A stretch of 28,518 nucleotides of DNA, taken from IMG/VR virus record IMGVR_UViG_2529293076_000021; one strand, 5' to 3'. Source of the stretch: a virus (lineage: Duplodnaviria > Heunggongvirae > Uroviricota > Caudoviricetes). Positions within the stretch are counted from its first letter, which is position 1. Each line of letters opens with the position of its first letter. A program made the position numbers. This document shows positions 12,001 to 15,000 of the stretch, piece after piece.

Positions 12001-15000
12001 CTGAACCTGCGTGAAAACCTTCCCCTCCGCCATCCAGTAATCCCGGAATGCGGCAAGCTCAGCAGGTGTAAATTCCGGCTCAGGCAGAGCCATACCCCAC
12101 ACTGCTGCCCGTTGTCGAAAATCCGGCGACGGCTGCCAGACAGTAGTCATCGAAAATTTCCCGATCGGTTCGCTCAGGCCGTCCAGGTATTCAGGTTCGG
12201 CTGTCTGCAACGGCGCACCATTCGACTCACTGGTCGGAATACTCTCGCGCGCGTTATGTGTGGGGTTTAATTCTGTATCTGTATCTTTATCTGTATCTTT
12301 ATCTGTCGTGACTTGTCGTGACTTGTCGTGACAGATGCGTGACACGTCGTGACTCATCGTGACAATCAGCATTATGTTTCCGCAGCTTTTCCCGCTCCCG
12401 CTGCGCTCTCTTGCGCTCTGCCGGGGATTTTGCCGTTTGCGAAACGTTACCATTGTCCTCTTTCAGCACCTGACGTTTTTCCCATCCGGAAATAAGGTCA
12501 CCATCCAGAACCCGCCCCTGCATTGCATGCAAAATTGAATCAATTACGTCTTCCGTCACATCAAGCGCACTTGCTAAATCTTCCGTCGTGACATCAATGT
12601 GACCACGTAGTGACACGCCGTGACATGTCGTGACATTTCGTGACGCGCTCACCAGAAGATGGATATACACTGCCATCACTGTTGCGATTGGCTGTCCTGA
12701 TACCCTGGCAATCGTTCGCCACTTGGGGTCATTTGGCATGTCATGCCACAATCTGAGCCAGGCATTAGCCATACTCACCTCTTCTGATACCGAACTTTAC
12801 CCTCGAACATCCGGAAGAAATCCGGCATGAATATTGTTGGTCAATGCACGACAACAGCATTACCAGGCTGACCCCCACTGTTAGTCAGGGTGCCCCAGGC
12901 GATCGCCGCTGCGACAAAATCATCCACATCTTTCACCAGCCGATCCCTCCGTTCGACGATCTCACGGTAATATTCAGAGCTGTGACTGCGCATACGGGCC
13001 ACCAGCAGAGGCGGCATTGCCTTTTCGATCGCCGGTAACAGAGCCTGCATTTTTTCAACTGCATCAGGGGTGTCTTTCTCTATCCAGCGGAAAATTTTCT
13101 GGGTATTGCGAGCCAGGGCTTCCGGATGGCTGTCGTCGTACAGTTCAGGAAACGTCATACCCAACTCAAAATAAGCCTGGGTTATTCCAGCTGCCGGAAC
13201 TTTTTCGCCATCAGGACGCGCCCAGGCATTCATCGCCATGCGGATGTGTTCATGCTTGATTTTCATGAATCCCCCCTTGGTTAGAAGGCGGATTATGATC
13301 AGAATCGGGAATGACAACCGTCGGTATGTGTAACTCATATTTGAGCGCCCCGGCAGTGACTGCCTGAATTAGCAACGCCCATTTCCACGGAACGTCTTCC
13401 CCCCACATGCTGACTGTGGTTTTTGACGTTCCTAGAGCGGCGGCTGTTTTAACAACTCCGCCAAAATAGCCTAATACTTCTGATTTTTTCATGAGTCGCT
13501 CCATAAAACTGAACGCCAAAAGTTTAATAATCAAAACCAAAGAAAGTCAAGAAACAAAACCATCTGTGTTTTAAAATCAAAACATGAACAAGCAAACAAT
13601 ATCTGAACGCATAACCCAACGTATGCATGCGCTAAACTTGAAAGGCAAAGACCTTGTCAATGCCACTGGCGCATCAAAAGGCTCCGTAAGTCAATGGATG
13701 AACGGTGGAGGAGCGCCGTCCTCGCGTTACATAAGTTCACTGGCAAAGATATTGAAAGTAAACGAAAATTGGCTTCTTAATGGAGGAGAGTTAAATACAG
13801 GTGATTCGCTTGATCTATCTTTACCGCCGATAAAAACGGTTCCGCTACTATCACTTCAGCAGGCAGCAAGCTGGAGTGATTATATGAAAAATTCCTCAAT
13901 AACCTCTTGTGTGCAGCTTGTCGGAGAAATCCCGGCCAATACCTTTGCTGTTGTTCTAGAGAGTGACAGTATGTCGACATCTGGTGGTGGAGTTTCCATC
14001 CCAAATGGTTCAACAGTTTTTGTTGATCCCGATCGAATCGTACAACCAGGAAATATTGTCCTTGCCTTACCCAAAGGGACCACAACGCCTGTCATTCGCA
14101 AACTGGAGATAGAAGGGCCGGATATTCTTTTAGTCCCCACGAATCCTCGCTACCCTTCAATTATGCTGGATGATCTATCTTGCATATTGGGAGTATGCTT
14201 TAAAATTCAACAAGATATTTAACCAACCTCATCTATTTGATTAACTGTATGCCATCGTAGTGATGGCGTAACAGCTGCCTGCTTAAAATGTTTTGATAAA
14301 AAAACATTGACCTTAAATGTTCGTTTTTCTAAACTTCATTCATTCCCTCACCCCGCCCCACAGAATGCAGGGCAATACTTCGAGTTACCAGGCAGTGGTC
14401 AGGGGTTAAGTAGCCAGCCCGAGGCGTAAGAACATGACGGCAGGGTTCAACTTTAATAACTATGCAGCAGGTTTTTGTTCCGCTACCCCGGCGTTAAGGG
14501 GAAATGAGGTCAACATGGATACGCTCAATCTTGGCAACAACGAATCTCTGGTATGTGGCGTGTTCCCCAACCAGGACGGTACGTTCACCGCGATGACGTA
14601 TACCAAAAGCAAAACGTTTAAAACTGAAGCTGGCGCGCGTCGCTGGTTAGCCAGAAACACTGACTGATGAGGTTGACGATGGAATTTAAAGATTTACCTC
14701 CTTCAATCCAGGAGATTGCAGCACACACACTTCGTCATCGTCTGAACGAACTTGAATTGGAATCGGTAACGAAAAAAGACACTGATAATATGGCTCGTAA
14801 TGTGCGCGATGCGTTTACCGGATTGTATTTCTGTGCGTCTATAAATAAACACGACTCAGAGAGTGTGGCAAATAAAATTGCAGAAACGACAGCGCAAAAC
14901 ATCAATACGAAACCAACGGAAGAAGAAATTGATCAGTTTGCTCATGATGCTGGTTTAAAAAACAAGAAAGAAAAATCGCCATATGCGGGGAACATGTTTG

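Follow-up and report, generated by a model that had tools for sequence, protein, structure and literature searches.

We analysed the 28,518-nucleotide (nt) IMG/VR virus record IMGVR_UViG_2529293076_000021 (the whole stretch is called the window below) and found that it contains the replication module of a degraded lambdoid prophage of Escherichia coli O157:H7, of the Cro-YdaT-initiator-P type. The replication initiator gene of this module (11719-12772, minus strand; 1054 nt) is almost certainly a pseudogene, produced by the duplication of one unit of an iteron array that lies within its own coding sequence. The best overall explanation, which we hold with considerable confidence, combines this unit duplication with an iteron-type replication origin carried inside the initiator gene. 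What is added here is comparative evidence pointing to such a bipartite in-gene origin, and to its recurrent inactivation by slippage of a single iteron.

The gene encodes an N-terminal domain (N-domain), a linker and a DnaT-like C-terminal domain (C-domain), and carries a 10-nt insertion. Alignment with intact homologues, proposed in the initial annotation as a way of counting the iterons, showed six iterons in the linker of the window versus five in the intact alleles of 1032, 1038, 1044, 1056 and 1068 nt. The spacing in these intact alleles is 10, 10, 11 and 10 bp, and the only variation among them is in the copy number of a 12-mer (one to four) or a 6-mer. The lesion is located at 12303-12332 (minus strand), where the window reads GTCACGACAA GTCACGACAA GTCACGACAG and the intact alleles read GTCACGACAA GTCACGACAG; it is a perfect tandem duplicate of one 10-nt unit, and either copy could be the extra one. 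Removal of one GTCACGACAA unit in silico gave DNA identity with the intact 1044-nt allele of strain TR01, which encodes 347 amino acids (aa). The identical gene of strain ECP19-598 is named 'DnaT-like ssDNA-binding domain-containing protein' and marked 'frameshifted; internal stop' by the Prokaryotic Genome Annotation Pipeline (PGAP), and the status of a frameshifted pseudogene, already flagged by automated annotation, is not new.

The insertion leaves two reading frames. The N-terminal frame (12299-12772, minus strand; 157 aa) starts at ATG 12772, or at GTG 12778 in the list of open reading frames (ORFs), and stops at TAA 12301-12299, within the 12-bp AT-rich repeats, just where the initial annotation had placed its end. 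Its product consists of a winged-helix domain, a basic linker and an iteron-coded tail ending in ...SRQVTTSHDR before the stop codon. The C-terminal frame (11719-12372, minus strand) gives 217 aa from ATG 12372 to the end at 11719 and holds the DnaT-like domain at about 11956-12156, which is now out of frame with the N-domain. This second frame had been thought to begin inside the iterons; an ATG at 12357 does lie within them, but the frame is open from 12453, and a further ATG, 12372, immediately precedes them. It shares about 150 nt (12299-12453) with the N-terminal frame.

To judge from sequence and fold comparisons, the initiator is a winged-helix, replisome-organizer-like N-domain fused to a DnaT-like C-domain. 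In the C-terminal ORF, Pfam DnaT (PF17948) matched at 63.2 bits against a cutoff of 25, solved DnaT structures (PDB chains) matched with an E value of 1e-20, and the NCBIfam DnaT equivalog scored 94.5 bits against a cutoff of 201. The N-domain has a winged-helix fold resembling the N-terminal domain of DnaD. PHROG replication-initiation families matched the initiator, with strong hits in its N-terminal part, and the matches included 'replisome organizer' (phrog_4880, E 5.8e-6) and 'DnaD-like helicase loader' (phrog_10469, E 6e-9); many homologues carry the NCBI name 'phage replisome organizer'. The gene had initially been called O-like, which is right as to its role and gene position but not as to homology with lambda O, since Pfam searches of the N-terminal ORF and of an intact 351-aa homologue returned no O-family (Phage_rep_O) match. 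A megablast search against a phage collection gave half-gene matches alone, with the full-length gene in no sequenced phage. By tblastn the N-domain was found in no classical lambdoid phage, so that the older origin literature (phi80, P22 and others) is not applicable.

The two arrays of six repeats at 10-11 bp spacing that were described in the initial annotation were found inside the initiator gene. The linker array (12304-12363, minus strand) consists of six GTCACG units spaced by 10, 10, 11, 10 and 10 bp; on the plus strand, CGTGAC starts at 12307, 12317, 12327, 12338, 12348 and 12358, and Tandem Repeats Finder reported a period of 10 with 5.9 copies over 12304-12363. The second array (12588-12644, minus strand) has six GTCAC cores spaced by 10, 10, 10, 11 and 11 bp and lies in the part coding for the N-domain, at about residues 43-62. 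It is 280 bp away from the first, as had been noted, and is 'upstream' in the sense that it sits at higher window coordinates on a minus-strand gene. The two arrays hold six and six GTCAC cores as direct repeats in the same orientation, phased with the helical repeat at 10-11 bp. CGTGAC occurs 25 times in the window versus 12.2 ± 3.9 times expected, none of 100 shuffles reached 25, and 10 of the 25 copies fall within the two arrays of about 60 nt in a single orientation.

Directly 3' of the linker array in gene orientation lie AT-rich 6/12-bp repeats (12266-12306, minus strand; ACAGATAAAGAT, coding DKDT). The 12-bp repeats TCTTTATCTGTA within them, which the initial annotation had correctly seen beside the array, extend over 12272-12306 with a period of 12 and 2.9 copies (Tandem Repeats Finder). 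The tract at 12266-12306 is 75.6% AT, compared to 46% for the initiator gene, and is a candidate DNA-unwinding element. A scan of 10500-14500 with Rfam matched no RNA family, leaving a structured-RNA account of the repeats without support. In the upstream array we found an old, lineage-specific insertion of 21 nt (two units) in the O157 type, which codes for TCHGVSL and appears as a 7-aa insertion relative to all other homologues in the alignment. The residues coded by this array (about 43-62) form a loop between helices 29-45 and 63-70, and the inserted residues 48-54 have a predicted local distance difference test (pLDDT) score below 50; the linker, too, is likely to be disordered and to accommodate repeats. 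The low score of this loop indicates that both arrays are placed in parts of the protein that tolerate arbitrary sequence.

In relatives at 38-67% protein identity, the architecture is kept and the motif is changed. GTCACG is found in E. coli, Aeromonas phage pAEv1818, Pseudomonas phage phi1 and two metagenomic contigs, CGAACGC in four metagenomic phages, and GCAACGC in Ralstonia phage Firinga. Each of these three subfamilies has one motif common to both arrays, at about nt 130-180 and 350-460 of the gene and with 10-11 bp spacing, and in every relative examined the linker array is succeeded by A-rich DKD-coding repeats. The repeat motif therefore changes together with the initiator subfamily, in the relative ctOK67 for the linker array alone. 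Because both arrays switch motif together across relatives, we consider it probable that they are the binding sites of the initiator and form its origin. The resemblance to ori-lambda proposed in the initial annotation holds for the layout, while the comparison with relatives suggests, rather than demonstrates, an origin function. Among these relatives, Pseudomonas phage phi1 (KT887557.1, 1201-2100 of our locus L026) has a homologous ORF with two GTCACG arrays that is open for more than 230 codons and has no coding sequence feature in GenBank; several other Pseudomonas phage records show two 'hypothetical proteins' under the match, which may be split or mis-annotated initiators.

We weighed four other explanations, all of them unlikely. 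The one that survives best, although improbable, is that the repeats are selected as protein repeats, or are a neutral linker, with no role in DNA and with the origin elsewhere. The overlap of the upstream array with conserved peptide text (SRNVT...RGH.DVT) and the probable disorder of the linker are in keeping with it. However, through the 10-nt phasing GTCACG falls in all three codon frames and is read as CHD, SR or VT, so that one hexamer gives different peptides, which argues for selection on the DNA motif and not on the peptide. Moreover, both arrays switch motif together between subfamilies while the 10-11 bp phasing and the position are kept, and the single orientation together with an AT-rich tract abutting the linker array is the classic layout of an iteron origin (PMC5737612, PMC7466680).

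A functional two-part gene is far less probable. In such a gene, a programmed frameshift within the iterons, two cooperating fragments, or an N-terminal fragment acting as an origin-binding inhibitor would keep the split form useful; the frame overlap of about 150 nt and the ATG codons 12372 and 12357, from which the C-terminal part could restart, would allow it, and a fragment recognising the iterons could in principle block relatives of the same specificity. The initial annotation had named working two-ORF homologues as the finding that would contradict a broken gene; instead, each of the homologues from E. coli, Aeromonas, Pseudomonas, Ralstonia and metagenomes consists of one ORF, and a conserved two-frame arrangement was not found. 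The split form amounts to about 1% of alleles (3-4 of 5,426 genomes) and is distinguished from the common allele by the duplication alone, the sequence is just the repeat with no conserved slippery site, and the prophage is otherwise decayed.

To return to the pseudogene produced by unit duplication, we determined how often the broken allele occurs. Three complete E. coli O157:H7 genomes (ECP19-598, 17B6-2 and G5295) have the same sequence as the window throughout a 1101-nt segment that includes the initiator. Among 5,426 complete E. coli genomes, more than 2,000 hold a related N-domain and iteron segment, and three match the 201-nt repeat region of the broken allele at 99% identity or more; a probe search found the triple unit in four genomes. 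The exact 347-aa product of the intact gene is present on at least 1000 contigs, whereas the 157-aa and 217-aa products of the window are on 8 and 5 contigs, respectively; in-frame variants of 343, 345 and 351 aa are on 697, 173-307 and 126 contigs. The six-iteron allele was also found in a prophage locus of IMG/VR (L043). The triple-unit probe also matched a further 33 records over 47 nt; these were considered as six-iteron alleles and put aside, as the two that were inspected (L023 and L024) have five iterons and an annotation free of any pseudogene flag.

These records bear on the possibility that the extra 10-bp unit is a sequencing or assembly artefact and the gene is in fact intact. Assemblers can miscount tandem repeats, and few records hold the allele; yet three complete O157:H7 genomes that were assembled independently share this allele, its exact products are on 8 and 5 contigs of further isolates as well as in L043, a clean 10-nt duplication is unlike a homopolymer-type read error, and the repeat is below the usual k-mer length of assembly. 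With the allele recurring in three complete genomes and on eight contigs, an error that would restore one frame, which the initial annotation had allowed for, is hardly credible.

The same kind of lesion was found on other backgrounds. The same +10 duplication occurs on a second background in strain SCU-104, which has one 12-mer and other flanking single-nucleotide polymorphisms (SNPs) and is called 'frameshifted' by PGAP, and on a third background in GCA_002229695.1 and, independently, in the read set SRR6413647, whose N-domains are without the 21-nt insertion. A -10 allele with four iterons (L020 and L078) is likewise truncated, to 157 or 150 aa. We also counted alleles in 78 IMG/VR prophage loci with the N-domain, relatives at 96-100% identity that served for allele counts and are too close for covariation. 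The results showed that all three loci with a change of one unit in either direction are broken, whereas one locus with an array net 21 nt shorter (three iterons) is intact, and that 0 to 4 copies of the 12-mer are all compatible with an open frame. Changes that keep the frame, in 12-mer copies or by ±21 nt (two units), are tolerated. Since the 10-bp unit is not a multiple of three, the array can change in frame-preserving steps only, as the initial annotation had anticipated in proposing that gain or loss of one unit would fuse or break the gene: removal of one unit restores the TR01 allele, and the +10 and -10 alleles are broken. The lesion is recent, rare and recurrent. That it is a contingency (phase-variable) switch, with reversible iteron slippage regulating the replication of the prophage, is scarcely believable, because, although +10 on three backgrounds and -10 as well mark the site as mutable, the two or three perfect 10-nt copies are far below those of true contingency loci, the broken alleles are about 1-4% of loci, on terminal branches and otherwise identical to an intact allele, no mixed populations were seen, and the prophage is unable to excise.

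Several relatives show other breaks in the same gene. In L021 (2501-3381; Logan SRR26887703) and in P0064, P0078, P0090 and P0091, the N-domain and the DnaT domain are in separate ORFs, or frameshifts are present, located directly upstream of the iterons, where AAGAGAGCGCAG and the basic linker lie. Insertions and deletions may be frequent in the entire linker region, and these relatives come partly from automatic assemblies. In P0012, a 150-aa initiator fragment is named, in one NCBI record, 'BREX-1 system adenine-specific DNA-methyltransferase PglX, partial', almost certainly a mis-annotation.

Some observations count against a slippage-inactivated initiator with its origin in the gene. With regard to the mutation, some of the broken alleles (L020 and L021) are known from automatic Logan assemblies alone, and out-of-register recombination between prophages, and not slippage, could be the source of a hybrid six-iteron allele (L018/L019). 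With regard to the origin, the AT-rich tract is short, at about 41 nt; in ctOK67, with the motif (T/G)AACGC, the linker array is evident and there is no clear array in the N-domain, which means that the upstream array may be dispensable or otherwise used; and literature searches on this initiator family returned no footprint, origin-plasmid assay or paper. With regard to the protein, Pfam found no match in the N-terminal ORF, TIGR01714 (phage_rep_org_N) matched the N-domain below threshold (E 0.0039; 17.4 bits against a cutoff of 49.8), and a Foldseek search of the N-domain against the PDB gave nothing significant.

The initiator gene is housed in the early-right operon of the lambdoid prophage, which is read on the minus strand. 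In gene order, a cI-like repressor gene (13584-14222, plus strand) comes before a P22-Cro-like gene (13492-13250, minus strand), which is followed by a YdaT-family gene (13266-12841, minus strand), the initiator pseudogene, a lambda-P-type helicase-loader gene (11265-11726, minus strand; Pfam Phage_lambda_P at 57.9 bits; 'replication protein P' in PGAP) and then a DUF1627 gene. The cI-like ORF codes for 212 aa with a weak HTH_3 match and a Peptidase_S24 domain. In near-identical genomes, PGAP annotates its last 113 aa alone (13884-14222, 'LexA family protein'), the start being mis-called or the N-terminal DNA-binding part being deemed defective.

The window does not stem from strain ECP19-598; compared with this strain over about 26 kb, it showed 99.5% identity, and almost all of the 127 differences are at 1-5000 and 25000-26200. 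Three SNPs were found over 5-22 kb, and the patchy differences look like patchwise recombination among sibling prophages. Each O157 genome has three to four places that match the initiator gene or the iteron segment, and sibling prophages with related initiators and iterons might act in trans on the origin of the window. Other genes of the window include those for tRNA-Arg and tRNA-Ile in the late-regulatory region and a Hok/Gef toxin gene in the nin-like region (3926-4178 and 8322-8477), which are typical cargo of O157 lambdoid prophages. At 18805-22463, ISEc8 (IS66 family; tnpA, tnpB and transposase) is inserted in an IS256-family transposase gene, the halves of which lie on both sides, and its neighbours are nleG7 (22613-23263), which codes for a type III effector, and the tail-fibre end of another prophage.

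The prophage, to judge from window positions 16558-18335 and 1-338, is a remnant and cannot excise. Its recE is truncated (16558-17359) and its integrase gene is reduced to a fragment (17784-18335). A fragment of a capsid gene lies right beside the lysis gene YdfR in strain TR01, so that most virion genes are lost. The truncated recE and integrase genes, and the lysis gene abutting the capsid fragment, are shared by the window prophage and TR01, whose initiator is intact, so that the prophage was defective before the initiator lesion arose. In O157 Sakai, the integrases and repressors of prophages Sp11 and Sp12 were reported to be disrupted, and O/P is apparently functional in every lambdoid prophage except Sp3 (PMC2669165), a pattern that fits a late, strain-specific lesion of the initiator. 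With integrase, RecE and virion genes already gone from the prophage, the lesion is neutral decay and not regulation.

From the above we propose the following mechanism. By analogy with lambda O and ori-lambda and with SPP1 G38P and oriL, in the intact state the N-domain would coat the phased iterons, the AT-rich tract would then melt, and the C-domain and the P-type loader would bring in host DnaB. Replication slippage between the adjacent, near-identical GTCACGACAA / GTCACGACAG units has probably doubled one of them. The shifted frame runs into a stop 11 codons on, in the AT-rich repeats, and the 157-aa product keeps the DNA-binding domain but not the DnaT-like one; the gene is dead. The ATG of the P gene overlaps the initiator stop codon by 8 nt (ATGACTGA), and the P gene is probably coupled in translation to the C-terminal part; as this part is now out of frame, the coupling has probably been lost as well.

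More generally, we lean, with some reserve, towards a widespread family of proteobacterial phage initiators with a winged helix and variable C-domains, including DnaT-like ones, and with a bipartite origin within the coding sequence. Its arrays would code for a surface loop of the N-domain and for the interdomain linker, would fall into at least three specificity classes switching in concert, and would change in frame-preserving steps (21 or 30 nt), with single-unit slippage as a recurrent, built-in route to inactivation during domestication. An in-gene origin whose repeat length does not fit the codon would be a mutational liability, and natural variation displays the rule: the gene is broken whenever a single unit (±10 nt) is gained or lost, and survives changes in the 12-mer or by two units (±21 nt). 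The analysis also offers a candidate origin and an iteron consensus for a family of initiators that E. coli prophages carry very frequently. The broken allele marks an O157 prophage unable to start its own replication, which bears on amplification or mobilisation by its siblings. The value lies mainly in a clean worked example, and no long-standing question is opened by it.

Plasmid iterons, which are bound by winged-helix Rep initiators, are usually about 17-22 bp long and lie outside the rep coding sequence, so that their number, unlike that in the window, is free of the reading frame. The iterons of lambda are inverted-repeat sites of about 19 bp. E. coli DnaT, a protein of replication restart, shares with the window initiator its DNA-binding domain of about 70 residues and nothing beyond, and in the window this domain is fused to a putative origin-binding winged helix in a phage initiator. 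Our literature searches on iterons with DnaT, replisome organizers, prophages and slippage frameshifts returned two precedents, lambda and the Shiga toxin (Stx) phages on the one hand and SPP1 on the other. The origin of lambda and Stx phages is located in the middle of O, and two extra iterons there add 13 residues (PMC7466680). As in the window, their iterons and AT-rich region lie mid-gene, in the link between N- and C-domains, the number of iterons varies and alters the length of the protein (PMC7466680), and a P-type loader gene follows the initiator, a match of layout that is known here from the sequence. The window initiator differs from lambda O in having no sequence homology to it, in its direct repeats with a 6-bp core phased at 10-11 bp, in a second array within the region coding for the N-domain, and in a DnaT-like C-domain. 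In SPP1, the iterons (AB boxes) and the AT-rich unwinding element of oriL lie inside gene 38 and are bound by the replisome organizer G38P (PMC5737612). Like G38P, a non-AAA+ 'replisome organizer' (PMC5737612), the predicted initiator of the window would bind repeats next to an AT-rich element inside its own gene. The phage_rep_org_N match of the window initiator is weak and below the curated cutoff, and it is unlike G38P in host clade, C-terminal domain and type of loader. Finally, oriR, the second binding region of SPP1, is distant in the genome, whereas the second array of the window lies 280 bp off within the same gene.

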